20,593 nucleotides of DNA from an uncultured Chroococcidiopsis sp. (GCA_964248365.1 CAXTYC010000056.1:1-20593); one strand, 5' to 3'; counted from the stretch's first letter, positions 2,618 through 16,933 are shown. Notes: generated by a model from the letters alone, not told the origin. Program-made: numbers and translations.

Positions 2618-2690
2618 TGTTTAAGTAATTAGGTGGCTTTAGAGCTTCCCTCGGTCAAGGCTTAGTTGGGTAAAAGTAGCTGCATTGACA

Positions 2691-2824
2691 TATAGCAACC
2701 CTAAATCATTCGTGAACAGTAAATGATCTAGTAGGGTGGGCATTGCCCACCAAATGCGGTAATGGTGGGCAATGCCCACCTACTGTAATATTGATATGTT
2801 TACTTTTCAGATAGGACTGCTATA
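2691..2824. mobile_element. 134-bp MITE-like element with TA-ended imperfect terminal inverted repeats (IS630-like)
   Basis: Left end is TATAGCAACCCTAAATCA (2691). The reverse complement of the right end (to 2824) is TATAGCAGTCCTATCTGA. No coding capacity. Confidence 0.65.
2731..2783. repeat. Inverted pair of GTAG-type REP palindromes inside the MITE
   Basis: GTAGGGTGGGCATTGCCCACC at 2731-2751 and GGTGGGCAATGCCCACCTAC at 2764-2783, the reverse complement of a near-identical unit. Each unit is itself a hairpin. Confidence 0.8.
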
Positions 2825-2845
2825 GTTTGGGCTAATGTTTGCATA

Positions 2846-2884
2846 AAAGCGTCCAGGTAAAACACCTGGACGCTTTATTGTTTT
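2846..2884. terminator. Intrinsic terminator, probably bidirectional
   Basis: Perfect 13-bp stem AAAGCGTCCAGGT (2846-2858) / ACCTGGACGCTTT (2864-2876) with a 5-nt loop. T-rich tail on + (TTTATTGTTTT) and TTTT on -. Lies downstream of cheA. Confidence 0.75.
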
Positions 2885-3019
2885 AATTAATAGGTAGAAC
2901 TTCAAAGCAAAATGTTTCTACACATTGACGAACTTTTGAAAAATCTCATCTGTCAACCATTGGGTGGTGGCTTTAAAGTTACGTGCTGGCATCGTACCGC
3001 CCAGCCGTACCATAGCCGA

Positions 3020-3104
3020 TTGGGCTTGAACTCGTTGCCAAAGCGTCCTAATGCTCAAGCGATTTATGGAGCTTTCTGTACAACAAAGTTCATAACACGC
3101 TCTA
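3020..3104 (+). mobile_element. IS5-family remnant: 3' end of transposase plus right end (copy 1)
   Basis: Encodes GLELVA/(frameshift)/VLMLKRFMELSVQQSS*, then CACGCTC and a CTAG site. It is a near-identical inverted copy of 18345-18426, which extends into clear IS5 motifs. Confidence 0.75.
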
Positions 3105-3397
3105 GATGCCATTTGTCTTTTAGTCGGGAACGACTTGGGCAATTTGATTGGCAAAGTGCTGCCCAAACTTTTGACACCATTCTCGGATTGTCTCATAGGT
3201 GACGAACACTCCCCCCTAGAGGATCATTTTCAAGGGTGTCCCTGTAACTTAAGGGAAAGGTGAAGTATAGCCAAATGCAGTGGCTAATGATTTGTGCTGG
3301 GAAGCCTCGCGGTGATACAACTCAAATTTTGCAGTTATGGAAGAATATTATTTCACTGACTGCCACTCCTGCCAATTCCCATTAATTTGACAGTACC
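3105..3397 (-). mobile_element. IS6-family remnant: left end and degenerate transposase N-terminus
   Basis: The minus strand reads FPAQIISHCIWLYFTFPLSYRD...VTYETIREWCQKFGQHFANQI and, after a frameshift, SRSRLKDKWHL, typical of an IS6 transposase N-terminus. An IS6-like terminal sequence GGTACTGTCAAATTAA starts at 3397 on the minus strand. Confidence 0.8.
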
Positions 3398-3641
3398 ATT
3401 CCTGCTTGTGTTGAGCATTGAGATAGCCTTCGCTTCCCTTTGTAGTTCAATTTCAGTCCTTCCACGCCAGTTACATCGTAGCGTTGATCGCTCTGCCTAA
3501 TCAATCCCAGAGATACGAGCAAGCACCAGAACGAATTTTCCGATAGCTATACCCCTGTTGATTCATTTGTATGGTTAGCTGCACGTTTGAGTTTTTGTGG
3601 ACGGGGATTACGTTTGAATAAATTGCTTGTTGGCTATTCAT
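3398..3641 (-). pseudogene. Degenerate N-terminus (HTH region) of an IS630-family transposase
   Basis: Across several frameshifts the minus strand reads NPRPQKLKRA / LTIQMNQQGYSYRKIR / VSLGLIRQSDQRYDVTGVEGLKLNYKGK, resembling cyanobacterial IS630 transposase N-termini. Confidence 0.6.
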
Positions 3642-3699
3642 AACCTGGGACGGTCAACTCGACTTGAGGAACTGTTTAAATTTACCTTTCGTTCAAAAC

Positions 3700-4394
3700 C
3701 TATTTAGCGTCACACAAGAAGCGAAAGAATCAACAAGTAAAAGCAAAATATTGTTCATTGTAACTGCAACCGTGCATCATATAAGCTGTTTAAATAAATC
3801 AAAATTTTATCAAAAATGCCACTTTTCCTAGACAATGAGGTAGTTGAATTACTGGCAATATAAAATAAGTATAAGCAGGATAATGATGAGCAAATGAGTT
3901 GGATTTGTCTGATTGCTTAATTTTTGAGAAGCTTTTGATTAGAAAGATGTAATAGTTTGCTGAAAAAGCCTTTGCTCACAAGATGATTGTTGATGGGTGC
4001 TACAAAAATAGCCAAGTTGCATCAGGTTTCAGCCTTGATATTTTGATGGATGCTATAGGGGAGATTTTATTTTGCCGATAGTTTAAGCCAGAAAGTATAT
4101 TATGCAACAGCTACAAGTATATAAAACACTATAATAAAAGGGCAATAGGATTGATTAATTTACTGCTAAAGGGTGAAATTTTTTTCGCTAAAAACATCTA
4201 AATATAAAGTGAGGTTACTTTAAGTTAAGTTAATATGCTAAGAATTTAATATGTATTTAGTATTGTCATAAATATAAGAAAAAAAAGTAACTGAAAACTG
4301 TTTGAGCAAGGGAAAATATTAAATAAACACGGCTTTGAAGCAAAAGCGGGGAAATTTTAAATAACTTAGTTCGTCCCAAAAAAAGCTATCAATC
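3700..4394 (+). promoter_or_regulatory. AT-rich non-coding region upstream of PKS1, presumed to hold the cluster promoter
   Basis: About 700 bp with no ORF, visibly much richer in A/T than the flanking genes. No specific operator could be assigned. Confidence 0.45.
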
Positions 4395-7300
4395 ATGAAT
4401 TCTATGAATTCCTTCACCTGTTTTTCCCTGAGTCCGATTGGAATTGCTCACCCTGGTATAGCAGTAGCAACGACACGAGCAGGCGGCGTTGGATTACTGG
4501 ACAGGGAATTTTGGTCAGGTGGTGATGATGTGGCGATCGCAAATCTAGACCGACTTTTAGAGTTAGTCAAAGATACCAGTAGTGTGGGATTACGTTTGCG
4601 GTTGGATCAAATTGCCGAAAGTCGTGGGCTGCTGGAACGACTTGGCGATCGCCCCCATTGGTTGATATTGTGTGGTTGGGAGCAGCAGTTGTTATCTCGC
4701 ATAGCATTGCTACCACAAAGCCGCTCGCGCAGGTTGTTGCTTGAAGTTACAGATGTTAACTCGGTATTATTAGACGATCGCATTGACGGGCTAGTTGCCA
4801 AAGGGCATGAAAGTGGCGGTTGGGTAGGCGAAGACTCGGCATTTATTTTGACGCAGAAACTTTTAAACATACAACCCAAGCCAGTATACGTACAAGGTGG
4901 AATCGGCATTCATACAGTAGCAGCTTGCCGTGCTGCTGGGGCAGCAGGTGTCATATTAGACGATCAATTGTTGCTGATGCCCGAATCACCCATACCAGAT
5001 GAATGGCAACCTTATTTAAATCAGCTTAACGGTACAGAAGCGATCGCAATTGGTGAGAAACTAAATGCTAGTTGCCGCGTGTTGTCTCGTCCAGGTTTTG
5101 AGGTAATTTCTAGGCTGCAAAAGCTTGCAGAGCAAATAGAAGTTGAGCATGAGGCATCCCAGGCGGGAACTCAACAATGGAAGCAACAAGCGAAATCTTT
5201 AATCGGTTGGGATACGCCTGGAGTACTAGCATACCCGATTGGACAAGCAGTAGGATTGGCAGCAAGTTACCGCGATCGCTACAAGACTACAGGCAGATTA
5301 GTGCAAGCATTGCTCAAAGCAAGTCAATCGCAGATCGAAAGTGCTAAAACCCTGCGTCCGCTGCAACCAAATGCGCCATTAGCAGTTGCTCATCGAACCA
5401 GATATCCAATCGTCCAAGGACCGATGACGCGGGTAAGCGACACAGCAGAGTTTGCCGATGCTGTCTCTAGGGCAGGAGCTTTACCAATGTTAGCCCTGGC
5501 ATTATTACGGGGCGCACAAGTACGAGACTTATTGTACAAGACAAAAGAACTGATCGGCGACAAATCCTGGGGTATAGGCATTCTTGGTTTTGTTCCGACC
5601 GAATTACGAGCAGAACAAATGCAAGCAGTTCTAGAGGTAAAACCACCTTTTGCCTTAATTGCTGGAGGACGACCGGATCAGGCAGCGCAATTAGAAGCTC
5701 AAGGCATTGCTAGTTATATCCATGTTCCTACACCAGGATTACTAAAAATGTTTCTGGAGGCGGGGGCAAAACGGTTTGTATTTGAAGGGCGGGAATGCGG
5801 CGGTCATGTTGGTCCTTTGAGCAGCTTTATGCTTTGGGAAAGCGCGATTTCGACCCTTTTAGATCAAGTACCTGCAAAAGCAGCAGACATACACGTTCTA
5901 TTTGCAGGCGGCATTCATGATGCCCGTTCCGCCGCGATGGTGAGTGCAATGGCTGCTCCTTTAGTAGAACGTGGTATGCGTATAGGCGTACTCATGGGAA
6001 CTGCCTATTTGTTTACCAAAGAAGCTGTGGACTGTGGAGCGATTGTAGACTCATTTCAAAAGCAAGCGATCACGTGTAACAGTACCATCAACCTAGAAAC
6101 TGGTCCAGGTCATGCCAGCCGCTGCGTTCGTACCCAGTTTGCCGACGAGTTTTATGCTACCCGACGGCGGATGTTGGCAGCAGGAAATTCTGCCCACGAG
6201 ATAAAAAATGTCCTAGAGGAGCTTAATCTAGGACGCTTGCGGGTTGCATCAAAAGGTTTAGTAAGAGGTGCAGACAATCAAATCACCGCGATCGATCCAG
6301 AAAAACAACTTACCGACGGAATGTATATGATCGGTCAAGTTGCCACAATACGCGACAAAGTTTGTAGCATACATTCGTTGCATCAAGATGTTTCGGAAAA
6401 AAGCAGCGACCTGTTAGAAGGCATTAGAAACGACCTATCGCTTGATGCTGCTTCCACCCCTAACCCCCAGCCCCTAGCCTCTAGTCCCTCAGATATAGCC
6501 ATTATCGGCATCGGCACTTTACTCCCCAAAGCCACCGAGCCAGAAATTTTTTGGCAGAACATTTTAGCATCGGTAAATACCATCACCGAAATTCCGCCGC
6601 AACGTTGGGACTGGCGACTATACTACGATCCAGACCGCAATGCCAAAGATAAAGTCTATTCTAAATGGGGTGGTTTTTTAGACGACGTGCCGTTCGATCC
6701 TATACGTTTTGGCATCCCGCCTAAGTCGTTAAAATCAATTGAACCGCTGCAACTGCTGACCCTAGAAGTTGTCCGACGGGCATTAGCAGATGCTGGATAT
6801 GAATCTGGTAACTTTGATCGAGAGAATACTTCTGTTATACTTGGGGCTGGCGGCGGTGTGGGCGATCTAGGAGAGCAATACGCTACACGCTCTCAAATTC
6901 CCAGGATTTTAGATGCTCCATCCGCTCAAGTTTGGGAGCGTTTGCCTCAGTGGAGCGAGGAAACATTTCCAGGCTTGCTTTCTAATGTGTTAGCAGGTCG
7001 AGTTGCTAACCGTTTTGATTTTGGTGGCTCGAATTTCACTGTAGATGCTGCTTGTGCTTCTTCCCTAGCAGCGATCGATTTAGCTGTGAGAGAACTGGAA
7101 AGTGGTCGCAGCAATATAGCGATCGCTGGAGGTGTAGACGTGGGACAAAGCCCCTTCGCCTACTTATGTTTCAGCAAGACACAGGCTTTTTCGGCACAAG
7201 GAAAAGTACGTACTTTTGATAAAGCAGCTGATGGCATTATTATCAGTGAAGGGTTGGCAGTTGTCGTTCTCAAACGTCTCGAAGATGCCGAACGAGATGG

Positions 7301-10300
7301 CGATCGCATCTATGGTGTAATTAAAGCCGTAGCCTCTTCTAGCGATGGAAAGGCTTTAGGGCTGACAGCGCCTTTGCCAGCAGGACAGATGCGAGCCTTT
7401 GATCGCGCCTACAAGAAAGCTGGTATTTCTCCCAACACTTTAGGGCTGTATGAAGCTCATGGCACTGGTACTGTTGCAGGTGATAGAGCAGAATTAGAAA
7501 CGATTGTCAAGACTCTAAAGGCAAATAATTCAGCGAGTAAGTCTTGCGCGATCGGCTCGATTAAAACCACACTCGGTCATACCAAAAGTACGGCTGGTGC
7601 TGCTGCTTTAGTGAAAGCTGTCTTATCGCTACATCATAAAGTATTGCCCCCTCACAGCGGTGTAGATAATCCATTGGATGCGATCGCAGATCCAGAAAGC
7701 TCAGTGTATTTGTTAAAGCAAGCCCGCCCTTGGTTTGCTCACCCTGACTACCCACGCCGCTGCGGTGTTAGCGCTTTTGGTTTCGGTGGCACGAATTTTC
7801 ACGCGATTGTCGAAGAATACCGAGGTGAATTTAAAGGCGAAGTCTTGGGTGCTGATAATTGGTCTTGTGAGCTAGTTGTGTTGCGCTCATCTAACCATGA
7901 GGCTTTAGCTAAGGATGTAAACTCGCTAAAACAGGCTTTGGATAATGGTGCTGAGCCTCGTCTACCGAATCTAGCTTATAGCTATGCAAAACAAGCGAAT
8001 AGTAGCAGTAATCCTCATGTTTGTTTGAGCATCGTTGTAGAAAGCCTGCAACAATTAAGAGAAGCCTTAGACTCGGTTCTTGCTCACTTAAAAGATCGAG
8101 TAGCACTCCCACCACACATCCAGCTATCAACAGAATTAATTTCAAATTCTTCACCCATAGCCTTTTTGTTCCCAGGACAGGGATCGCAATATCCAAACAT
8201 GGCTTGTGAAGTGGCTCTATACTTCAAGGAAATGCGTAAGGCACTCGAAGCAGCAGATCGGCAACTAGGGCTGCCCAAACTGCTTAGCCAGTTCATTTAT
8301 CCGCCCAGTGCGTATTCAAAAGCAGATGAAACACGTAATTCTCAACAGCTAACTGATACCCAGATCGCTCAGCCTGCCATTGGCGTTGTAGAAGCGGGTT
8401 ATATGGACTTGCTTGCTCGACTAGGGCTATTTGCAGATATGGTTGGCGGAAACAGCTATGGTGAGTATGCTGCGTTGCATAATGCTGGAGTTTTGTCAAG
8501 GAAAGACTTTTTCAGCATTTCCCAAACGCGAGGTCGGGTAATGTCGGCAGCGTGTGGCGAGGTAGAAGGCGCGATGGCAGCTGTTCAGGCTACCCGCGAA
8601 GAATTGCAGGCACACTTAGACGGTCTTGAGAACGTTGTGATTGCCAATCATAATGCTCCGCTTCAGAGTGTGATTTCTGGTAACAAGCAAGCAGTTCAAC
8701 AAGTTGTCGATAGTCTGAATTCCCAGGGAATAGTAGCTCGGATGCTGCCCGTTGCTGGTGCTTTCCATTGTGCAATGCTCGCTTCCGCTCAAAAGCCTTT
8801 GGCTGATGCGATCGCTGCTGTCAAGATGTACTCCCCCAAAATTCCTGTTTACAGCAACTCTTCAGCTCGTCCCTACGACTGTGATATTGACCAGATCCGC
8901 ACTCAATTATCCCAACACTTGCTCAGTCCGGTAGAATTTGTCGAGCAAATCAAGTGTATGTACTCTGATGGCGCTCGTATATTTGTTGAAGTTGGTCCTA
9001 AGAGTACTCTGACGAAGTTGGTTGACCAAATTCTTGCCGGAAAAGAGCATACTGCCGTGTCTTTAGATGGGCAAGGCGGGGGCTTGCGAGGTTTACTGCT
9101 GGCTCTAGGTACAATGATTACGCGCGGTGTCAATATTCGGTTAACTGCTTTATTTGAGGGGCGTAATGTACGTCAGCTAGACCTGTCCCGACTAGTCCAG
9201 AATACGCGAAAACCAGAACTACCGCGTACAGCTTGGCTGGTAAATGGTGGATCTGCCAGACCTCAAGAGAAAGAGGGGGAGAGTGGGAGAGGGAAAGAGG
9301 AGGAGAAATTTTCATCCAAAATCCAAAATCCAAAATCTAAAATCCAAAATCCCCCAGCCCCAAGCCCCCAGCCTCTAGCCCCTCACAACTCGCGTACAAA
9401 CGGGTTTACCTCAGATCTTCATCAACAAACGGGTAATTCTCTTAAACCCGCCCCTACCAGTACGGGCGGGTTGACAAAAGATCTTCATCAACAAACGGGT
9501 AATTCTATTGAACCCGCCCCTACCAATGTACGCCGATCGCAAACGCCTGCAACACCAGCCATGACCTATCAACCAACACAACCACAAGTATTATCCAATA
9601 ACCATACCTCGTCCCCCGAAGTGGCTTTGGTAGCTTACCAAGCTTATCAAGAAACCATGCGTCAGTTTTTGGCGTTGCAGGAACAGGTAATGATGCAGTT
9701 TCTCAATGTCACTTCCTCAAGACAAATTATACCGCCGCCCCCAACAATAACTGCCATCGCCGCAACAACTGCTCCTCAAATTAGCCCTGACAATGGCAAA
9801 CGTAATGGCAATGGCAATGGTGCAGTAATGCCAGCCGTGCAACCTCCTACACCGCCTGCAATTCCTCCCTCACCCTCAATACCTACTCCCCAACTAGAGA
9901 TCGGTTCAGGGGAGAGTGGGAGAGTGGGAGAGTGGGAGAATGGGAGCAATTCACCTCGCACAGTCGTCACCTCCTCAGCTCCCTCAGCTCCCCAGGGGGA
10001 TCGCGCTACTTTAACTCAGACGCTGTTAGAGTTGGTAAGCGATCGCACTGGTTATCCCATAGAAATGCTGGGATTAGACCAAGACATGGAAGCAGAACTT
10101 GGCATTGATTCGATTAAGCGGGTGGAAATCTTGGGTGCGGTTGTAAAAAGCTTGCCACAAAATCTGAGTGCCAGCGTACAAGAGCAAATGGACAGCTTTA
10201 CCCAGGCAAAGACTCTTAATGGTATTGTTGCAGAATTGCTTCAAGTCATAAACAAAGAAGCTCCCCCTGCTTCCCCTGCCTTCTCTACCCAGGAGGACAT

Positions 10301-10343
10301 TAGCCTGGGAAAGTCTCCTTTGGGGCGATCCCCCGCTACGTGA
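4395..10343 (+). CDS. Iterative type I PKS/FAS subunit 1 (PfaA/ArsA-like): tandem FabK/nitronate-monooxygenase-like ER domains - KS - AT - ACP
   Basis: Two FMN TIM-barrel-like units (AKGHESGGWVG...YVQGGIG and IVQGPMTRVSD...FEGRECGGHVG...LFAGGIHD...GTAYL). KS with DAACASS (Cys codon 7053), EAHGTG and LGHTK. AT with FPGQGSQY, GNSYG and GAFH. One PfaA-type ACP, RTGYPIEML...LGIDSIKRVEIL (Ser codon 10110). Confidence 0.93.
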   Translation: MNSMNSFTCFSLSPIGIAHPGIAVATTRAGGVGLLDREFWSGGDDVAIANLDRLLELVKDTSSVGLRLRLDQIAESRGLLERLGDRPHWLILCGWEQQLLSRIALLPQSRSRRLLLEVTDVNSVLLDDRIDGLVAKGHESGGWVGEDSAFILTQKLLNIQPKPVYVQGGIGIHTVAACRAAGAAGVILDDQLLLMPESPIPDEWQPYLNQLNGTEAIAIGEKLNASCRVLSRPGFEVISRLQKLAEQIEVEHEASQAGTQQWKQQAKSLIGWDTPGVLAYPIGQAVGLAASYRDRYKTTGRLVQALLKASQSQIESAKTLRPLQPNAPLAVAHRTRYPIVQGPMTRVSDTAEFADAVSRAGALPMLALALLRGAQVRDLLYKTKELIGDKSWGIGILGFVPTELRAEQMQAVLEVKPPFALIAGGRPDQAAQLEAQGIASYIHVPTPGLLKMFLEAGAKRFVFEGRECGGHVGPLSSFMLWESAISTLLDQVPAKAADIHVLFAGGIHDARSAAMVSAMAAPLVERGMRIGVLMGTAYLFTKEAVDCGAIVDSFQKQAITCNSTINLETGPGHASRCVRTQFADEFYATRRRMLAAGNSAHEIKNVLEELNLGRLRVASKGLVRGADNQITAIDPEKQLTDGMYMIGQVATIRDKVCSIHSLHQDVSEKSSDLLEGIRNDLSLDAASTPNPQPLASSPSDIAIIGIGTLLPKATEPEIFWQNILASVNTITEIPPQRWDWRLYYDPDRNAKDKVYSKWGGFLDDVPFDPIRFGIPPKSLKSIEPLQLLTLEVVRRALADAGYESGNFDRENTSVILGAGGGVGDLGEQYATRSQIPRILDAPSAQVWERLPQWSEETFPGLLSNVLAGRVANRFDFGGSNFTVDAACASSLAAIDLAVRELESGRSNIAIAGGVDVGQSPFAYLCFSKTQAFSAQGKVRTFDKAADGIIISEGLAVVVLKRLEDAERDGDRIYGVIKAVASSSDGKALGLTAPLPAGQMRAFDRAYKKAGISPNTLGLYEAHGTGTVAGDRAELETIVKTLKANNSASKSCAIGSIKTTLGHTKSTAGAAALVKAVLSLHHKVLPPHSGVDNPLDAIADPESSVYLLKQARPWFAHPDYPRRCGVSAFGFGGTNFHAIVEEYRGEFKGEVLGADNWSCELVVLRSSNHEALAKDVNSLKQALDNGAEPRLPNLAYSYAKQANSSSNPHVCLSIVVESLQQLREALDSVLAHLKDRVALPPHIQLSTELISNSSPIAFLFPGQGSQYPNMACEVALYFKEMRKALEAADRQLGLPKLLSQFIYPPSAYSKADETRNSQQLTDTQIAQPAIGVVEAGYMDLLARLGLFADMVGGNSYGEYAALHNAGVLSRKDFFSISQTRGRVMSAACGEVEGAMAAVQATREELQAHLDGLENVVIANHNAPLQSVISGNKQAVQQVVDSLNSQGIVARMLPVAGAFHCAMLASAQKPLADAIAAVKMYSPKIPVYSNSSARPYDCDIDQIRTQLSQHLLSPVEFVEQIKCMYSDGARIFVEVGPKSTLTKLVDQILAGKEHTAVSLDGQGGGLRGLLLALGTMITRGVNIRLTALFEGRNVRQLDLSRLVQNTRKPELPRTAWLVNGGSARPQEKEGESGRGKEEEKFSSKIQNPKSKIQNPPAPSPQPLAPHNSRTNGFTSDLHQQTGNSLKPAPTSTGGLTKDLHQQTGNSIEPAPTNVRRSQTPATPAMTYQPTQPQVLSNNHTSSPEVALVAYQAYQETMRQFLALQEQVMMQFLNVTSSRQIIPPPPTITAIAATTAPQISPDNGKRNGNGNGAVMPAVQPPTPPAIPPSPSIPTPQLEIGSGESGRVGEWENGSNSPRTVVTSSAPSAPQGDRATLTQTLLELVSDRTGYPIEMLGLDQDMEAELGIDSIKRVEILGAVVKSLPQNLSASVQEQMDSFTQAKTLNGIVAELLQVINKEAPPASPAFSTQEDISLGKSPLGRSPAT
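9394..9523. repeat. Two tandem 64-bp palindrome-ended elements inserted in frame in the PKS1 AT-ACP linker
   Basis: Units at 9394-9457 and 9460-9523 (period 66 nt = 22 aa) share AGATCTTCATCAACAAACGGGTAATTCT. Unit ends are GTAC(GGG)CGGGTT and AACCCGCCCCTAC. Confidence 0.85.
10291..10333 (+). promoter_or_regulatory. Candidate -1 programmed ribosomal frameshift signal between PKS1 and KR
   Basis: SD-like AGGAGG at 10291-10296. Slippery heptamer G_GGA_AAG at 10307-10313, in the PKS1 phase. Hairpin GGGG-CGAT-CCCC at 10322-10333. The KR frame is -1 relative to PKS1 and is open from 10304. Confidence 0.7.
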
Positions 10344-11866
10344 TGCAAGCGCGATCGCAACCTTTGCCTGAATGTGAGTCGATCTCCCCTACTGGTTTAT
10401 TCCTGATTACTGAAGACCAATTATCAGTAGCAAGCTACGTTGCCCAAGCATTGCAGCAAAGGGGAGCCGTCACAGCAATTATATCGGGATCTAGCCTACT
10501 CGATCCCGAACAGATGGCAAGAGAAATTGCCTATGCGCGTCAACACTATGGATCTGTTGTTGGAATCGTACACTTAGCACCGCTTGCCAGCGCGCCTAAT
10601 TTAGAAAATTTAGCCCAGTGGCGCAAATATACTCAAATTCAGTTAAAAAGCTTGTTTGGAATGTTGCAGCTGTGTGCTGCCGATTTGCAACAAGTCGGTC
10701 GGGTTGTGGCTGCTTCTCTACTAGGGGGAAATTTTGGACGGGATCGCCACCTTCAACCTGGGCTACCAATTGGTGGCGGTTGTAATGGTTTACTCAAAGC
10801 AATGGCGATCGAGTGGTCGAATGTTCGTGCTAAGGCGATCGATTTTGACAATAGCCTGTCCCCCGCTGACATGGCACAACACATTATCAACGAGCTACTT
10901 TGCTCTAAAGGGCGGATAGAAGTTGGTTATATCCAAGGAAAGCGCACAGTTTTCGATACAGTCGAAGCACCTTTCAAAGCACCTATATCACAAAGTGAGC
11001 CAAATGTCAACTGGGTAGTTATGATTACTGGAGGGGCGAGGGGAATTACTGCCCAAATTGCTCATGAACTTGTAATCCCAGGCATGACAATGATAGTTGT
11101 AGGGCGATCGCCTCTACCACAGCCAGATCCCCAGTTCGACGGCATTGAAGATATTGCCGTATTGCGTAGAATGTTACTAGATCGTGCAAAGGCACAAGGT
11201 TTGTCACCTACACCAGTGCAGATTGAAAGCAAACTAGGGGAATTACTACGCGATCGCGCGATTTGCCACAACCTGGAAAATCTGGAAAAAGCAGGCGCGA
11301 TCGTTGAATACCACTGTATAGATGTTAGACAGCAGGAATTTGGCGAATTAATCGATAGTATTTATTCTCGCTACGGTCGTTTGGATGCAGTCATACATGG
11401 CGCTGGCATTATCGAAGATAAGCTGATAGTCAACAAAAGTCCAGCATCCTTCGACTCGGTATTTGATACCAAAGTAGATAGTACCTTCATTCTCAGCCGC
11501 TATTTACGACCCGAATCCTTAAAATTGCTTGTCTTGTTCGGTTCCGTTGCAGGTCGCTATGGTAATCGCGGACAATCGGACTACGCCGCCGCTAACGAAA
11601 CAATCAACCGTCTAGCATGGCAAATGGACAACCGTTGGTCAAATACACGAGTTGTGACAATTAACTGGGGTCCTTGGGATGTCGTCGGTATGGCTTCCGA
11701 TGACGTAAAACGCCAGTTAAAAGATCGTGGCATCATTCCCATCGATCCCCAAGCTGGTAGCCAGTTTTTTATGGATGAACTGCGATATGGACGCAAAGGC
11801 GAAACAGAAGTAATTGCAGGACAAGGGCTATGGTCAATATATGAAGATCTATACAGCAGCCGCTAA
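10340..11866 (+). CDS. PKS ketoreductase (structural plus catalytic KR subdomains); possibly translated as the C-terminus of PKS1
   Basis: NAD(P)H motif ITGGARGIT, then HGAGIIEDK, TKV, catalytic GQSDYAAAN and INWGPW. The GTG start overlaps the PKS1 TGA, but the frame is open 12 codons further upstream (from 10304). Confidence 0.92.
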   Translation: MMQARSQPLPECESISPTGLFLITEDQLSVASYVAQALQQRGAVTAIISGSSLLDPEQMAREIAYARQHYGSVVGIVHLAPLASAPNLENLAQWRKYTQIQLKSLFGMLQLCAADLQQVGRVVAASLLGGNFGRDRHLQPGLPIGGGCNGLLKAMAIEWSNVRAKAIDFDNSLSPADMAQHIINELLCSKGRIEVGYIQGKRTVFDTVEAPFKAPISQSEPNVNWVVMITGGARGITAQIAHELVIPGMTMIVVGRSPLPQPDPQFDGIEDIAVLRRMLLDRAKAQGLSPTPVQIESKLGELLRDRAICHNLENLEKAGAIVEYHCIDVRQQEFGELIDSIYSRYGRLDAVIHGAGIIEDKLIVNKSPASFDSVFDTKVDSTFILSRYLRPESLKLLVLFGSVAGRYGNRGQSDYAAANETINRLAWQMDNRWSNTRVVTINWGPWDVVGMASDDVKRQLKDRGIIPIDPQAGSQFFMDELRYGRKGETEVIAGQGLWSIYEDLYSSR

Positions 11867-11958
11867 ACCATTACATTTAATCCTCTGTTTCTTCCTTAGC
11901 GTCCTTGGCGTCTTTGCGGTTCGTTTAAGAAAAGATTGCTATAGCCAATCCAAACACA

Positions 11959-12021
11959 GTACGGGCGGGTTTATCTGTCTACCTGTGTTCCCACCAAGAT
12001 AAGAGTTGAACCCGCCCCTAC
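11959..12021. repeat. Intergenic 63-bp element with the same palindromic ends as the PKS1 linker inserts
   Basis: GTACGGGCGGGTT-(N37)-AACCCGCCCCTAC. The ends are identical to those of 9460-9523 and the interior differs. Confidence 0.8.
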
Positions 12022-12037
12022 TAACTCCTGATAACTG

Positions 12038-15000
12038 ATGATTTCTCAAAGCTCACCCACCGACATCGCTATCGTTGGTATGTCTGCATTGTTCCCTGGA
12101 TGTAAAGACTTGTCTACCTACTGGCAAAACATCCTTAACAACGTAGATAACGTCCATGATGCACCAGATGATTGGGTCAGTCCCTACTTCAATTTGAATT
12201 CTAATGCAAGCGATCGCCTCTACACTCGTAAAGGTGGCTTTCTTAGGGATCTGGCACAATTCGATCCAATAGAATTTGGCATTATCCCAAATTCAGTCAA
12301 AGCAGGAGATCCAGACCACTTTCTAGCGTTGAAACTCGCAAAAGATGCCCTGCGAGATGCTGGCTATAGCGATCGCCCCTTCAACCGAGAAAAGACAGGC
12401 ATTATTCTTGGTCGTGGAAACCACATGAATCGTGGCGGTGTCGCGGCAGTGCAACAAAGCATTATACTCGATCAAACTCTGGAGTTGCTGCGCCAATTCT
12501 GCCCTGAGATGGATGCAGATACTTTAAGCAATATTGGCAAAGAACTCCAAGCCAGCCTACCGCCGTATAGTTCTGATTCCTTATTGGGGATAGTACCCAA
12601 TTTGCTGACTGGGCGCATCGCTAATCGCCTCAATTTGATGGGAACGAATTACATTGTCGATGCTGCTTGCGCTTCTTCGTTGATTGCAGTCGAACAAGCA
12701 GTCAAAGAACTAGTGGATGGACGCTGTGACATGATGCTAGCCGGAGGGGTACAAGCTTCTACACCCGCACAAATTTTCATGATGTTCTGTCAGCTGAATG
12801 CTTTGTCACGCAACAAAATTCGTCCTTTCGACGTGAATGCTGATGGAACGCTGCTAGCCGAAGGTTTGGGGATTTTGGTTTTAAAACGGCTGCGTGATGC
12901 TCAACAAGATGGCGATCGCATTTATGCAGTCTTGAAAGCATTGGGTAGCTCTAGTGACGGCAAAGCATTAGGATTACTAGCACCACGTTTAGAAGGTCAA
13001 GTACTGGCACTACAAAGAGTATACACAGACAATGGCATCGATTCGAACACCGTAGAACTGATTGAAGCTCACGGCACAGGTATGCCATTAGGAGACAAGA
13101 CGGAAATCCAATCTCTCACGCGGGTCTTTGGTCAGCGTCAAGGAAAGATCCCCCGGTGTGCATTGGGTTCTGTCAAATCAATGCTCGGTCACTGCATCCC
13201 AGCGGCGGGAATTGCAGGCATGATTAAAGCTGCCCTGGCATTATATCATAAAATATTGCCACCAACACTATGCGATCGCGTTAATCCAGCTTTAGAAATT
13301 GAAAAAACACCCTTTTATATCAATACCCAAGCACGACCTTGGATTCATGGTAATCGAGCAGTGCCACGCCGTGCAGGTGTAAATGCCTTTGGATTTGGTG
13401 GCATTAATGCCCATGCGTTATTGGAAGAGTATACCTTAGATCGAGATCCCAAGCTGCTGCACAAGCAATGGTCTACAGAACTTTTGATATTTACAGCAGA
13501 TGAGCGTCAAAACCTGATTGCTCTAGTCCAAAAAGTACAGCGAATTCTGAGTGCCGATGTCAATATTTCCCTGGCTAACCTAGCATACACTCTATCAAAC
13601 TTACCTTTTGGTACTCATCGTCTAGCGATCGTTGCTCAGGATGTTTCGGACTTACAAACAAAACTTCAGCTGGCGCAAGAAAAACTTACCAATCCTCAAT
13701 GCACTCAACTACAGATACCAACTGGCATTTACTACACAGATCCCAATCTAACAGCCGAAAGAGGTAAAACAGCCTTTCTATTTCCAGGTGAAGGGTCGCA
13801 ATATCCGAATATGCTGGCTGAGCTTTGCTTACACTTTCCTACAGTTAGAAAATGTTTTGACATTTTAGACGAACATTTTCCCGATAAAAGCGAGTATTTA
13901 CCTAGTAGCCTGATTTTCCCCCCGCCAACTTGCACAACAGAAGATGAACGGCATTTGCTCACAACACAGTTATATAGTATGAAGGTTGCTCCAGGGGTGT
14001 TGTTCTCAATCAACCTAGCATTGTACGAACTGCTAAGCGATTTGGGTATCGAGTGCGATGTCATGGTAGGTCACAGTTCTGGAGAACAAGCTGCTCTTGC
14101 AGCTGCGGGTATACTACGTCCAATCGAGCGGGAGCGACTATTAAAAAGACTGGAATATCTCAACTCTGTTTATAGTGATTTAGAACGGCAAGACAAAATC
14201 CCTAGAGGAGTGCTTCTATCAGTAGGTGGTATTGCTCCTGCTTTGATTAAACAGCTAGTTGACAACTCTTTTGGTCGTCTACATCTGGCAATGGATAATT
14301 GCCCGAATCAGGCTGTATTATTTGGTAGCGAAGATGATATTGACGCAGTTGTTACCCAGCTTAAAGCAGCTGGTGGCATCTGTACGCGCTTACCCTTTGA
14401 CCGTGCTTATCACACTTCGCTGTTTGCAGGAGTAGAAAAGGCAATCCGTCCTTATTATGATGGTTTGGATGTAGGTGAGGGTCATACTCCTGTTTATAGT
14501 TGTGTTACCTGTGAGGCTTTCCCCAGCGAAACCGAAGCTATCAGTGATTTGACTGTCAAAAGTATGTCTAGTCCGGTGCGCTTTCGGGAAACTATTGAAA
14601 AACTTTATGATTATGAGCAGGTAAGAACTTTTATTACGGTTGGACCGAGCGACGATTTGACTGCTTTCGTGGATGACATACTACGCGATCGCCATAAACT
14701 TGCACTATCTAGCAATAGTCAGCATAAATCGAGTTTGGCACAAATTCAACATCTGTTGGCTCAACTGTTTACGAGGGGAAAGTCAGTCAATATAACTTAC
14801 CTGTACAAGTATCGGGAACTGATTGGGATCGATTTAGATGCTGCTACCCCAATCAAAGTCAGTTCAGCCTCGCCTGTACTGGATCTGAGTATGCCAGTTA
14901 TGCGTCTAAAGCCAGATTTCGTAAAGTCTATAGTCGAGCAGAAGAGCTGGAAAGCTGGGGATCCTGGGGAGCTGGGGACAGTGTTAGATGGGGAGCGTGG

Positions 15001-16933
15001 GAGAATGGGAGAAACACTAACTCCGAATTCCGAATTCTCCTCTGCCCCTTGCGCCCCTTGCCCCTTGCGCCCCTTGCCCCTCTACTCCTCTGCCTCTTCG
15101 GTTAGTTTATCTGGTATTTCTGCCCACTTTGAATTGATGCAAGAGTTCCTTGCTAGTCAAGCACGGGTGACGACAACGCTATTCTCTGGTGCTGCTACTG
15201 ACAACAATGCCGAAGAATGGGAAACTAATTCGGACTATACATTTACTAGTGCAAATTGTCAAGCTCTCCCGACGCAGCCGCAAGCTTTGCCGCTTTTAGG
15301 CAATATTATTGAAAGAGATGCTCAGCACTTATATTGCGAGCGTCAATTCGATATAGAAAGAGATGTATTTCTGCATGACCATACTATGGGCGGTACTATT
15401 TCCCAGGGTCATCCAGAATTGTTACCGTTGCCCGTTATCCCGTTTACCATCAGTATGGAAATTATTGCCCAGGCTGCTGTAAGTCTAGTTGGGGGTAATA
15501 AGTGTGTTACTAGTCTCTATAATCTGCGCGGCTATCGCTGGTTAGCACTCGACTGTGGACAACTAAACTTGGGTATACTTGCTCGGTTGCAGGCAACAGA
15601 TGACCATTCAAGCGATGTTCATGTGCAATTGTTCCAGTTGTCTGACACCATGCAGGCTAACCGCTTTTTAGCATTTGAAGGATACGTTAAACTATCAGAT
15701 CGATTTACGCTTTCGCCCCTTGCTATGGCTTTTGAAGGAGGCAAGCCAAAGATAGCAAAACCTGCGGATGCAGATTTGTATGGTACAATCATGTTTCACG
15801 GACGGCGTTTTCAAGGTGTCAAACACTTACGCTCTTGTGGCGAACATGGTATCGAAGCTGATTTGCAGGCGATCGCTTATAATGACTTTTTCACCGATAT
15901 CGAGCAGCCTGTTTTTCAAATCGATCCTAGCCTACTTGATGCTGCTGGGCAATTAGTAGGTTTTTGGATAGCAGCCGATCCGCAAAAAGATTTCAGTGTC
16001 TTCCCATTTCAGGTACAATCTTTTCACCAATATCAGCCGCCCTTACCTGCTGGTAGTTTTGTACTGTGTCGCGGCTTAATACGCCACACCAACCAGCAAC
16101 AAACCGAGGCAAGTTTTGATTTTACCGATTCTTCAGGTCGTTTGATCGCTCGTCTAGAAGGGTGGCTAGATAAATACTTTAGTATCCCAACCAATTATTG
16201 GCAATGCCTTAAGTATCCACAAACCGCTTACTTATCCTCGCCTTGGATGCAAGCAGAAACCGGACTAGTGTGTCGCCGTATTCAACCGTTTTCACAGCAA
16301 TTTTTTGAGAGCGCTTGGGGCATTTTTAAGCGTATCCTTGCCCATTTGATACTAAATGCCCAAGAACGTGACTTTTGGTATAATTTACCCGAAAAAGGTT
16401 CGCGCCGTACTGATTGGCTGTTGGGACGTGCTGCGGCTAAAGATGCTGTACGCCAATGGGCAAACGAACACTATAACATAGAACTTGCACCCGTTGATAT
16501 TGAAATTATAACCACAACTTCGGGTAAACCTGTGGTGCGTTGTCCTGAAGGGGAGGCTATTGGTTCGCCTCCTGAGATCTCTATCAGCCACAGCAATGGT
16601 TATGTGGTTGCAGCTGTGGCAAAGCAAAACAAGCGTATAGGCATAGATGTAGAACAAATTGACTCTGTTCGTACCGATGATTTGCTTTACAGTGCTTTTA
16701 CCAAGCAAGAACGAGAATTAATTTCTCAACACAATCACCCAGCTACCATTGTTAGTTTTTGGTCTGCAAAAGAAGCCGCAGCCAAGGCGCTGGGTAAAGG
16801 GCTTGATAATCCTCATCAATGGTGCATTACTGAATATTCTACAGATGGCATCGTCGTGAGTCACTTAGGTGAGACTTTCGAGGTCAAACTTTGGTATCAA
16901 GATATGAAAGTTATAGCTATCTGTTTAATATAG
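12038..16933 (+). CDS. Type I PKS/FAS subunit 2: KS - AT - DH - C-terminal 4'-phosphopantetheinyl transferase
   Basis: KS with DAACASS (Cys codon 12668), EAHGTG and LGHCIP. AT with FPGEGSQY, GHSSG (Ser codon 14075) and RAYHT. DH with FLHDHTMGG...PVIP, MFHGRRFQ and LLDAAGQ. PPTase with WLLGRAAAK, SISHS, IGIDVE and FWSAKEAAAKALG. No ACP or TE seen. Confidence 0.92.
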   Translation: MISQSSPTDIAIVGMSALFPGCKDLSTYWQNILNNVDNVHDAPDDWVSPYFNLNSNASDRLYTRKGGFLRDLAQFDPIEFGIIPNSVKAGDPDHFLALKLAKDALRDAGYSDRPFNREKTGIILGRGNHMNRGGVAAVQQSIILDQTLELLRQFCPEMDADTLSNIGKELQASLPPYSSDSLLGIVPNLLTGRIANRLNLMGTNYIVDAACASSLIAVEQAVKELVDGRCDMMLAGGVQASTPAQIFMMFCQLNALSRNKIRPFDVNADGTLLAEGLGILVLKRLRDAQQDGDRIYAVLKALGSSSDGKALGLLAPRLEGQVLALQRVYTDNGIDSNTVELIEAHGTGMPLGDKTEIQSLTRVFGQRQGKIPRCALGSVKSMLGHCIPAAGIAGMIKAALALYHKILPPTLCDRVNPALEIEKTPFYINTQARPWIHGNRAVPRRAGVNAFGFGGINAHALLEEYTLDRDPKLLHKQWSTELLIFTADERQNLIALVQKVQRILSADVNISLANLAYTLSNLPFGTHRLAIVAQDVSDLQTKLQLAQEKLTNPQCTQLQIPTGIYYTDPNLTAERGKTAFLFPGEGSQYPNMLAELCLHFPTVRKCFDILDEHFPDKSEYLPSSLIFPPPTCTTEDERHLLTTQLYSMKVAPGVLFSINLALYELLSDLGIECDVMVGHSSGEQAALAAAGILRPIERERLLKRLEYLNSVYSDLERQDKIPRGVLLSVGGIAPALIKQLVDNSFGRLHLAMDNCPNQAVLFGSEDDIDAVVTQLKAAGGICTRLPFDRAYHTSLFAGVEKAIRPYYDGLDVGEGHTPVYSCVTCEAFPSETEAISDLTVKSMSSPVRFRETIEKLYDYEQVRTFITVGPSDDLTAFVDDILRDRHKLALSSNSQHKSSLAQIQHLLAQLFTRGKSVNITYLYKYRELIGIDLDAATPIKVSSASPVLDLSMPVMRLKPDFVKSIVEQKSWKAGDPGELGTVLDGERGRMGETLTPNSEFSSAPCAPCPLRPLPLYSSASSVSLSGISAHFELMQEFLASQARVTTTLFSGAATDNNAEEWETNSDYTFTSANCQALPTQPQALPLLGNIIERDAQHLYCERQFDIERDVFLHDHTMGGTISQGHPELLPLPVIPFTISMEIIAQAAVSLVGGNKCVTSLYNLRGYRWLALDCGQLNLGILARLQATDDHSSDVHVQLFQLSDTMQANRFLAFEGYVKLSDRFTLSPLAMAFEGGKPKIAKPADADLYGTIMFHGRRFQGVKHLRSCGEHGIEADLQAIAYNDFFTDIEQPVFQIDPSLLDAAGQLVGFWIAADPQKDFSVFPFQVQSFHQYQPPLPAGSFVLCRGLIRHTNQQQTEASFDFTDSSGRLIARLEGWLDKYFSIPTNYWQCLKYPQTAYLSSPWMQAETGLVCRRIQPFSQQFFESAWGIFKRILAHLILNAQERDFWYNLPEKGSRRTDWLLGRAAAKDAVRQWANEHYNIELAPVDIEIITTTSGKPVVRCPEGEAIGSPPEISISHSNGYVVAAVAKQNKRIGIDVEQIDSVRTDDLLYSAFTKQERELISQHNHPATIVSFWSAKEAAAKALGKGLDNPHQWCITEYSTDGIVVSHLGETFEVKLWYQDMKVIAICLI

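Follow-up and report, generated by a model that had tools for sequence, protein, structure and literature searches.

A candidate dnaX-type -1 frameshift cassette at the ACP-KR junction of cyanobacterial Pfa-like synthases

The gene PKS1, in a 20,593-nucleotide (nt) stretch of DNA from an uncultured Chroococcidiopsis sp. (GCA_964248365.1, CAXTYC010000056.1:1-20593; hereafter the window), encodes the ER, KS, AT and ACP domains of a Pfa-like synthase, an iterative type I fatty-acid/polyketide synthase (FAS/PKS); the KR domain follows in a second open reading frame (ORF), at -1 relative to PKS1. Comparison of this junction among orthologs leads us to propose that the ACP-KR linker of the cyanobacterial synthases carries a programmed -1 ribosomal frameshift cassette of the dnaX type, a reading to which we assign a probability of about 0.8. 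Every readable ortholog junction of the cyanobacterial clade (26 genome and 5 metagenome loci) has the heptamer G_GGA_AAG in phase, both where KR is encoded in a separate frame and where it is fused to the ACP.

Results

The ACP-KR junction and its predicted products

Both frames are open only over positions 10304-10340, because a TAG closes the -1 frame at 10301-10303 and PKS1 ends at the TGA at 10341-10343. The heptamer is correctly phased within this overlap (ctG_GGA_AAG, with zero-frame codons CTG, GGA and AAG at 10305, 10308 and 10311), and it is preceded by an internal Shine-Dalgarno (SD)-like motif (Table 1). An earlier analysis of the window (the original prediction) had described the -1 position of KR, the overlap, the phased heptamer and the AGGAGG 10 nt upstream, and our examination confirmed all of its coordinates. 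It had also anticipated two isoforms of 1982 and about 2490 amino acids (aa); likewise, we computed that a slip at the heptamer would join 1973 and 517 aa at the junction ...ISLGK-VSFGAIPRYVMQ... into a product of 2490 aa (~269 kDa) with no internal stops. The predicted short form and free KR are of ~213 and ~56 kDa, respectively. Regarding possible pairings around the site, the CCCAGG at 10288-10293 is able to pair with the CCTGGG at 10304-10309, and GATCTCCCC, named in the original prediction as an alternative pairing partner, is located at 10381-10389.

Table 1. Features of PKS1 and of its junction with KR; positions are counted from the first nucleotide of the window.
Feature	Position	Strand	Remarks
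PKS1, zero-frame ORF	4395..10343	+	ATG at 4395 to TGA at 10341-10343; 1982 aa; short isoform, C-terminal end ...ISLGKSPLGRSPAT*
Internal SD-like AGGAGG	10291..10296	+	10 nt 5' of the heptamer; proposed 5' stimulator
TAG closing the -1 frame 5' of the heptamer	10301..10303	+	Sets the 5' limit of the shift window
Invariant core GCCTGGGAAAG (family: GCYTGGGAAAG)	10303..10313	+	Contains G_GGA_AAG at 10307-10313
-1-frame continuation VSFGAIPRYVMQ...KR domain...stop at 11864-11866	10313..11866	+	517 codons
Weak hairpin GGGG-CGAT-CCCC(C)	10322..10334	+	8 nt 3' of the heptamer; not significant, not conserved
GTGATG, candidate free-KR starts over the TGA	10340..10345	+	GTG at 10340, ATG at 10343; translational-coupling alternative
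TGA, zero-frame stop	10341..10343	+	30 nt after the heptamer; ends the short isoform

In the mechanism that we propose, GGA would occupy the P site and AAG the A site, and tRNA-Gly(UCC) and the sole tRNA-Lys found (UUU) would re-pair on GGG AAA, a slip probably aided by pairing of the 16S anti-SD with the upstream AGGAGG. Ribosomes that do not slip would stop at the TGA at 10341 and yield ER-KS-AT-ACP, of 1982 aa, and those that slip would read VSFGAIPRY... and yield ER-KS-AT-ACP-KR, of 2490 aa. The family would use both polarities: in split clusters the slip would add KR(-DH), and in fused clusters it would meet a -1 stop and remove KR-DH. Since both polarities keep the site, the conserved output would be two forms, with and without the reductive C-terminal part. 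We infer from the sequences the slippage itself, its stimulation by the SD-like motif, a substantial efficiency (perhaps near one half) and the roles of the isoforms.

Conservation of the heptamer and of the -1 frame

Homologs were sought with the KR protein, and not the motif, as the query. Three close orthologs emerged from 41 related genomes. Two samples of 401 genomes each, drawn from the phylum and from the order, contained 4 carriers (the window's genome included) and 17 carriers, respectively; one of the 17 lies at a contig edge and has no junction to read. Protein-pattern scans of contig collections, built on an alignment (A1) of 16 KR(-DH) sequences, yielded 80 loci from genome contigs and another 80 from metagenome contigs. 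The start of KR homology was set by tblastn in each locus, and we then determined whether the KR frame is open upstream (fused) or else the frame of the upstream gene; a few heptamer-less loci match only from query residue 29 or beyond, and there the 200-nt search window may miss the linker. Distinct loci amounted to 26 from genomes and 5 further ones from metagenomes.

All 16 readable junctions from the sample of the order had an in-phase G_GGA_AAG, nine in split loci with KR at -1 and seven in loci fused in frame. Among the genome contigs, 77 of the 80 loci had an N-terminal match and 16 of these 77 contained the in-phase heptamer (13 split at -1, 3 fused), six duplicating earlier loci and ten being new and distinct; the remaining loci were fused without an in-phase heptamer (50), ran off the contig end (7) or were split without a heptamer (4). 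Metagenome contigs gave an N-terminal match in 64 of 80 loci and the in-phase heptamer in 7 of the 64 (5 split at -1, 2 fused), which added 5 new distinct loci. KR was at -1, with the heptamer inside a two-frame overlap of 22-175 nt, in 22 out of 22 distinct split loci, and the heptamer was also kept in nine out of nine fused cyanobacterial loci, two of which are near-copies of each other. Heptamer carriers are cyanobacteria of many families, plus a few metagenome-assembled genomes (MAGs) without a name; by record name, they include Fischerella, Symplocastrum, Coleofasciculaceae, Potamolinea, Hormoscilla, Aliterella, Chroococcus, Waterburya, Dactylococcopsis and a Gloeobacterales MAG. Conversely, the heptamer was absent from the ACP-KR linker of HglE-like paralogs of related genomes (32-34% identity), indicating that the site is specific to the PKS1 orthogroup. 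Out-of-phase copies near the junction in two loci (L078 and L152) are chance occurrences.

In eight of the nine fused loci, the -1 frame closes 3-4 codons on from the heptamer: the stop is the third codon from GGG (the fourth in L062) in all seven distinct genome loci, as compared with 12.9% of background positions, and TAA, TAG and TGA are all used. Alignment of the junctions had been set beforehand as the test of the original prediction, and split orthologs did retain the -1 phase and the heptamer in the overlap (22/22); 22 of the 25 loci assessed for an SD-like element have it. The opposite outcome, fused homologs lacking a slippery site, was not seen among cyanobacterial orthologs, which keep an identical heptamer and mostly an immediate -1 stop. 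In the fused loci of two sister genomes (L003 and L038, at ~1434-1464), two in-phase heptamers stand 24 nt from each other (LGKSEVNGLGK), with -1 stops 3 and 7 codons on.

Constraint on nucleotides rather than on protein

The sequence GCYTGGGAAAG (Y = C/T) is invariant in the 25 distinct loci that we anchored on the heptamer, with 2.0 bits at 10 of its 11 positions; its flanks reach 0-0.7 bits, except for a GGAG peak at -16 to -11, and the linker is otherwise unconserved. As a control, we took the 64 KR columns whose amino acid does not vary among these 25 loci. A single codon was used in one of them, a Trp column, and in none of the 63 non-Trp columns (0/63); in this control GGA made up 24% of the codons in invariant Gly columns and AAG 30% of those in invariant Lys columns. 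The Leu codon 5' of the heptamer is CTG or TTG, never any of the other four, and only its third-position G, the X of X_XXY_YYZ, is therefore fixed. Additionally, the GC at -4/-3 (10303-10304 in the window) is invariant in the 25 loci although the encoded residue varies among Ser, Cys, Gly and Arg (AGC, TGC, GGC and CGC), a constraint reaching beyond the classical heptamer.

Proposed upstream stimulator and decoding tRNA

We assessed the SD-like element by its presence and spacing. GGAG or GAGG ending 7-14 nt upstream of the heptamer, mostly at 10 nt, was found in 22 of 25 loci as against 4.1% of background positions, and a 5-mer SD-like version in 20 of 25 against 1.9%. Aragorn identified 42 tRNAs in the whole assembly, a 102-contig draft in which misses are possible, including two tRNA-Lys(UUU) and no tRNA-Lys(CUU). 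Excerpts of a review (Atkins et al. 2016; PMC5009743) describe G_GGA_AAG as highly shift-prone in E. coli, state that the sole tRNA-Lys pairs better with AAA than with AAG, and give 50% as the frameshift efficiency of dnaX.

Coding upstream of the conserved methionine

None of the 16 KR sequences in alignment A1, fused members included, departs from the R and Y of the motif (P/G)RY (IPRY). In split loci, the -1 frame encodes these two residues downstream of the heptamer and ahead of an aligned Met; in the window, this is 5' of the GTG at 10340. No ATG, GTG or TTG occurs between the opening of the -1 frame and the (P/G)RY motif in 17 of the 18 split genome loci. Moreover, 5 of the 18 (L002, L036, L043, L057 and L061) have no start within four or more codons of the aligned Met, and their first starts appear 18, 26, 26 and 32 codons from GGG, with none in the stretch examined of L057. 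The aligned Met is equally conserved inside fused orthologs, indicating that it is a residue of the family and no evidence of a start.

Evolutionary history of the split and fused forms

We constructed a maximum-likelihood tree with 41 KR sequences (18 split, 8 fused with the heptamer and 15 others), whose deep branches are weak and whose root is provisional. Split and fused forms interleave on it: the split state needs five changes, at least two of them forced by well-supported branches, and split loci formed one clade in 0 of 200 bootstrap trees, whereas being fused with the heptamer needs at least three changes.

Fused homologs lacking the heptamer occur in Acidobacteriota, Nevskiales/Solimonas, Sorangium, anammox and other Planctomycetota, and others, with ACP-KR linkers that are Ala/Pro-rich and contain no LGK. 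Some heptamer-less non-cyanobacterial lineages nest among the cyanobacterial KR sequences, one such clade with 100/96 support, which suggests inter-phylum transfer; those nested are the lineages of two Verrucomicrobia homologs (L071 and L083), two Gammaproteobacteria and some Acidobacteriota. In the fused locus of a Gloeobacterales relative (L054), CTG GGG GAG replaces the heptamer; this looks like a decayed site, because it is still preceded, at 10 nt, by GGAGG and followed by a TGA in the -1 frame. The two Verrucomicrobia homologs (~2700-3000) are ordinary splits, in which the upstream gene stops and a KR(-DH) gene has its own start. No slippery site is present, and the two KR proteins have in common a conserved extension at the N-terminus (...HQ.TMRAFLESQ.AV...), possibly a docking sequence.

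Evaluation of alternative explanations

Several observations weigh against a programmed frameshift. The loci are kin, and their counts overstate independence. The window contains seven copies of GGGAAAG, compared with 2.6 expected; by our own arithmetic, two further copies (at 1231 and 14776) are in phase with an ORF, and the latter is not kept, the ortholog having AAT GGT ACA at the aligned position. Evidently neither is a recoding site, so the heptamer alone proves nothing. Three of the 25 loci have no GGAG or GAGG at the tested spacing, and L035 and L055 have no SD-like match at all; cyanobacterial initiation uses SD-anti-SD pairing less than that of E. coli. L035 also has a -1-frame ATG 14 codons before the heptamer, and a fused metagenome lineage (L130/L131) reaches a -1 stop only at the seventh codon. 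Furthermore, in 13 of the 18 split genome loci, among them the window, the codon of the conserved Met is an ATG that touches the stop of the zero frame, and coupled re-initiation there could also give free KR.

We did not find a conserved 3' stimulatory structure by folding, energy percentiles or RNAalifold. The 70 nt after the heptamer, folded locus by locus, gave mixed z-scores; for local folding energy, the mean percentile of the downstream 45 nt was 0.34, and only 8 of 26 loci were below 0.1; and RNAalifold produced no consensus structure from 21 split, 8 fused or all 29 sequences. The hairpin that the original prediction placed 8 nt downstream of the heptamer is present in the window, but with a z-score of -0.4 to -0.6 against dinucleotide shuffles it is no better than these, is not conserved and is probably not an essential part of the signal. 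At best, 3' structures are lineage-specific, and they are not counted in the conserved signal. The caveats that accompanied the original prediction (a weak hairpin, two other in-phase heptamers in the window and a GTGA overlap) hold.

One rival explanation is that PKS1 and KR are two ordinary genes: PKS1 would end at its TGA, coupled re-initiation at the GTG or ATG would make KR solely in free form (56 kDa), and the heptamer would be kept for some other reason. Division of a PKS into separate subunits is common, the Verrucomicrobia homologs being an example, and this organization would agree with the GTGATG overlap in the window and with the ATG beside the zero-frame stop in 13 of 18 split loci. 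We nevertheless consider it unlikely: the loci do not fit a translationally coupled pair, because 5 of the 18 split loci have no start codon near the Met, the invariant R-Y is encoded upstream of this Met in the -1 frame of all split loci, and the Met is a family residue shared with fused orthologs. Two separate genes would also leave unexplained the invariant 11-nt core, the uniform -1 phase (22/22) and the -1 stops after the heptamer in fused loci. The last two features also argue against the SD-like motif and the heptamer acting, with no productive shift, as a translational pause or regulatory element of the linker, be it for co-translational folding, for phosphopantetheinylation of the ACP or as an RNA-processing mark. 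Internal SD-like sequences have been proposed to slow elongation, the site is exactly at a domain boundary, and the classical heptamer model does not require the GC that is invariant at -4/-3 despite a varying residue. A pause, however, constrains no reading frame and predicts neither splits that are all at -1 with the site in the overlap, nor immediate -1 stops in fused loci, nor KR residues encoded before any start, and we regard this explanation as quite improbable.

A -1 message could also arise by stuttering of the RNA polymerase at GGGAAAG. Known sites of transcriptional slippage are longer homopolymer runs. The motif runs only to three G and three A, and the lack of a long homopolymer makes this route very unlikely. 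Transcriptional slippage does serve the dnaX of Thermus for this purpose, as indicated in excerpts of the review (PMC5009743). At the PKS1-KR junction, the X_XXY_YYZ phasing, the AAG ending, a sole tRNA-Lys(UUU) and an SD-like motif at 10 nt are features of a ribosomal shift. Finally, most homologs outside cyanobacteria are fused, as would be expected if a recent frameshift mutation or an assembly indel had broken a fused gene, leaving KR as a decaying or accidentally split remnant. To this we give almost no credence, since KR is likewise placed at -1 in 22 distinct loci, with KR proteins 36-51% different from that of the window, the KR ORFs are intact (519-852 codons) and split and fused forms interleave on the tree. 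Contigs from other samples, 90-99% alike to the window, cross the junction as well (spanning 10097-10415, 10292-10452 and 10064-10900); the length changes listed for them are limited to 9 nt inserted in frame at 10263 and two changes at 10530/10535 that compensate each other, with no indels listed between 10264 and 10529. An assembly error or a pseudogene was accordingly rejected, and with it the indel error that the original prediction had named as a potential refutation. None of the sequencing runs searched contained as much as half of the words sampled from the window; the single run of RNA reads mapped covers positions 9830-10096 only, and the site is covered by no RNA contig.

The gene cluster in the window

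Pfam identified in PKS1 an NMO-type ER, KS, AT and one PP-binding (ACP) domain, and a KR domain in the following ORF (10340-11866; 508 aa counted from the GTG). The ORF at 12038-16933 contains KS, AT, PS-DH and ACPS domains, corresponding to a KS-AT-DH-PPTase companion subunit, and is followed by a gene for an MFS transporter. The cluster hence has the composition of a Pfa-like secondary-lipid synthase: a KS-AT-ACP-KR subunit, a second KS subunit with DH, an NMO/PfaD-type ER and a PPTase.

The KR ORF of the window stops after ~519 codons with no PKS-type DH domain behind it, and is followed by a 171-nt gap (11864-12037). Most orthologs (13 of 16) encode KR-DH, in 798-852 codons, and those of two genomes, G128 (L031) and G608 (L040), are short like that of the window; a search of the whole genome with the DH of an ortholog gave a sole DH-like match, inside the ORF 12038-16933 (25% identity). 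KR as the optional domain, as originally predicted, would thus apply to the window, but in most orthologs the optional part would be KR-DH.

Neighbours of the cluster vary by genome. The window has the MFS transporter gene. L124 (G619) has genes for a sulfatase, an alpha/beta hydrolase and a phosphodiesterase of type I; L125 (G028) has genes for a TauD dioxygenase, a hydrolase and a large protein containing a methyltransferase, and no KS-AT-DH-PPTase gene directly follows its fused synthase. Within the AT-ACP linker of PKS1 are short tandem repeats whose periods are not divisible by three (window 9314-9382 and 9910-9946; 7 nt x5.6, 14 nt x2.3 and 8 nt x4.6). The summed depth of metagenome contigs is 390-1840 over the 8-nt array and 2-54 alongside, indicating that the array is a widespread repeat. 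Upstream of PKS1, the ~1.8 kb (2618-4394) that separate it from a gene for a CheA-like hybrid kinase contain no Rfam match and no ORF of at least 100 aa, the longest being of 96 and 92 aa, on opposite strands at 2912-3202. An Rfam search of the whole window found no family at its gathering score.

Discussion

The proposed cassette is of a known kind. That of E. coli dnaX, which produces tau and gamma, comprises A_AAA_AAG, an SD-like element 10 nt upstream and a 3' stem-loop; its efficiency is about 50%, according to excerpts of the review (PMC5009743). Like it, the PKS1-KR site has a heptamer of the form X_XXA_AAG, for which tRNA-Lys(UUU) is the sole lysine tRNA found, together with an SD-like motif ~10 nt 5' and, as predicted here from sequence, two products with a common N-terminal part and different C-terminal domains. 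As in dnaX gamma, the -1 frame of fused loci stops almost at once, and both polarities exist among orthologs, as they do for the dnaX of some bacteria in the same excerpts (PMC5009743). In contrast with dnaX, the gene encodes a lipid/polyketide megasynthase and not a replication protein, the P-site codon is GGA instead of AAA, and a conserved 3' stem-loop was not found.

The overlapping orfA and orfB of the IS3 family (e.g. IS911), with the second ORF at -1 and an A_AAG-ending heptamer in the overlap, on which slippage produces the fusion protein, show a similar layout. An upstream SD-like stimulator is known in members of this family. Unlike these mobile elements, PKS1 is a chromosomal biosynthetic gene, shows no sign of a 3' three-way junction or pseudoknot, and has orthologs in the fused polarity. 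The carboxysome gene csoS2 of chemoautotrophs and alpha-cyanobacteria yields full-length and truncated forms (CsoS2A/B) through a -1 shift at roughly 50% (PMC5009743, in excerpts), and is likewise a non-mobile cellular gene of lineages that include cyanobacteria, with a -1 frameshift such as the one proposed here. These excerpts describe for csoS2 a complex 3' stem-loop and no 5' SD stimulator, whereas in PKS1 it is the 5' SD-like element that is conserved and not a 3' structure. As for the synthase, the order KS-AT-ACP-KR(-DH) of the long isoform and fused homologs, and the companion KS-AT-DH-PPTase subunit, are those of PfaA/HglE-type subunits. PKS1 differs from these in an NMO-type ER fused at the N-terminus, in having only one or two ACPs and, in the window, in a KR part without DH.

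Programmed -1 frameshifts in non-mobile bacterial genes are few; those treated in the excerpts of the review are dnaX, csoS2 and copA (PMC5009743). We found no frameshift described in a polyketide, fatty-acid or polyunsaturated fatty acid (PUFA)-type megasynthase in the literature searched (the PMC open-access subset and bioRxiv full text). The GeneTack survey, in the portions available to us, lists a "polyketide cyclase" cluster as translational coupling and nothing resembling the PKS1-KR site (PMC3711429). As far as searched, and within this open-access literature, the gene family appears to be new for the mechanism.

By analogy, the efficiency of the shift is inferred to be substantial, possibly near one half. 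Speculatively, the two isoforms may serve the stoichiometry of reductive domains in a multimeric synthase, and in loci that have an ATG, the window among them, coupled re-initiation may supply free KR as a third product. A more specific model, which we hold only tentatively and consider rather doubtful, is that these synthases require subunits that have the KR(-DH) arm and subunits that lack it in a fixed proportion, perhaps near 1:1, in an asymmetric or heteromeric assembly like that of tau and gamma in the clamp loader, with a shift of ~50% setting the ratio. The ratio would act as a genetically encoded control on the stoichiometry of the reductive domains and possibly on the pattern of product reduction, and the GC at -4/-3 would be an additional determinant in the 5' context. 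The polarity would have flipped at least twice (five times on the best tree) with the site kept; under this model, lineages could switch between slipping to extend and slipping to truncate without losing the site because the ratio is near one half.

If a frameshift at the ACP-KR junction is confirmed, its SD-like motif and 11-nt core would constitute a compact natural cassette for setting subunit ratios in cyanobacteria. It would also be a warning to annotators and genome miners, as the split genes would be neither pseudogenes nor simply separate subunits. The synthases would represent a second gene family with repeated reversal of frameshift polarity, an evolutionary signature of an efficiency near one half. 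The domain composition of an assembly-line enzyme would then be settable at translation, with the optional KR(-DH) arm as a designed feature.

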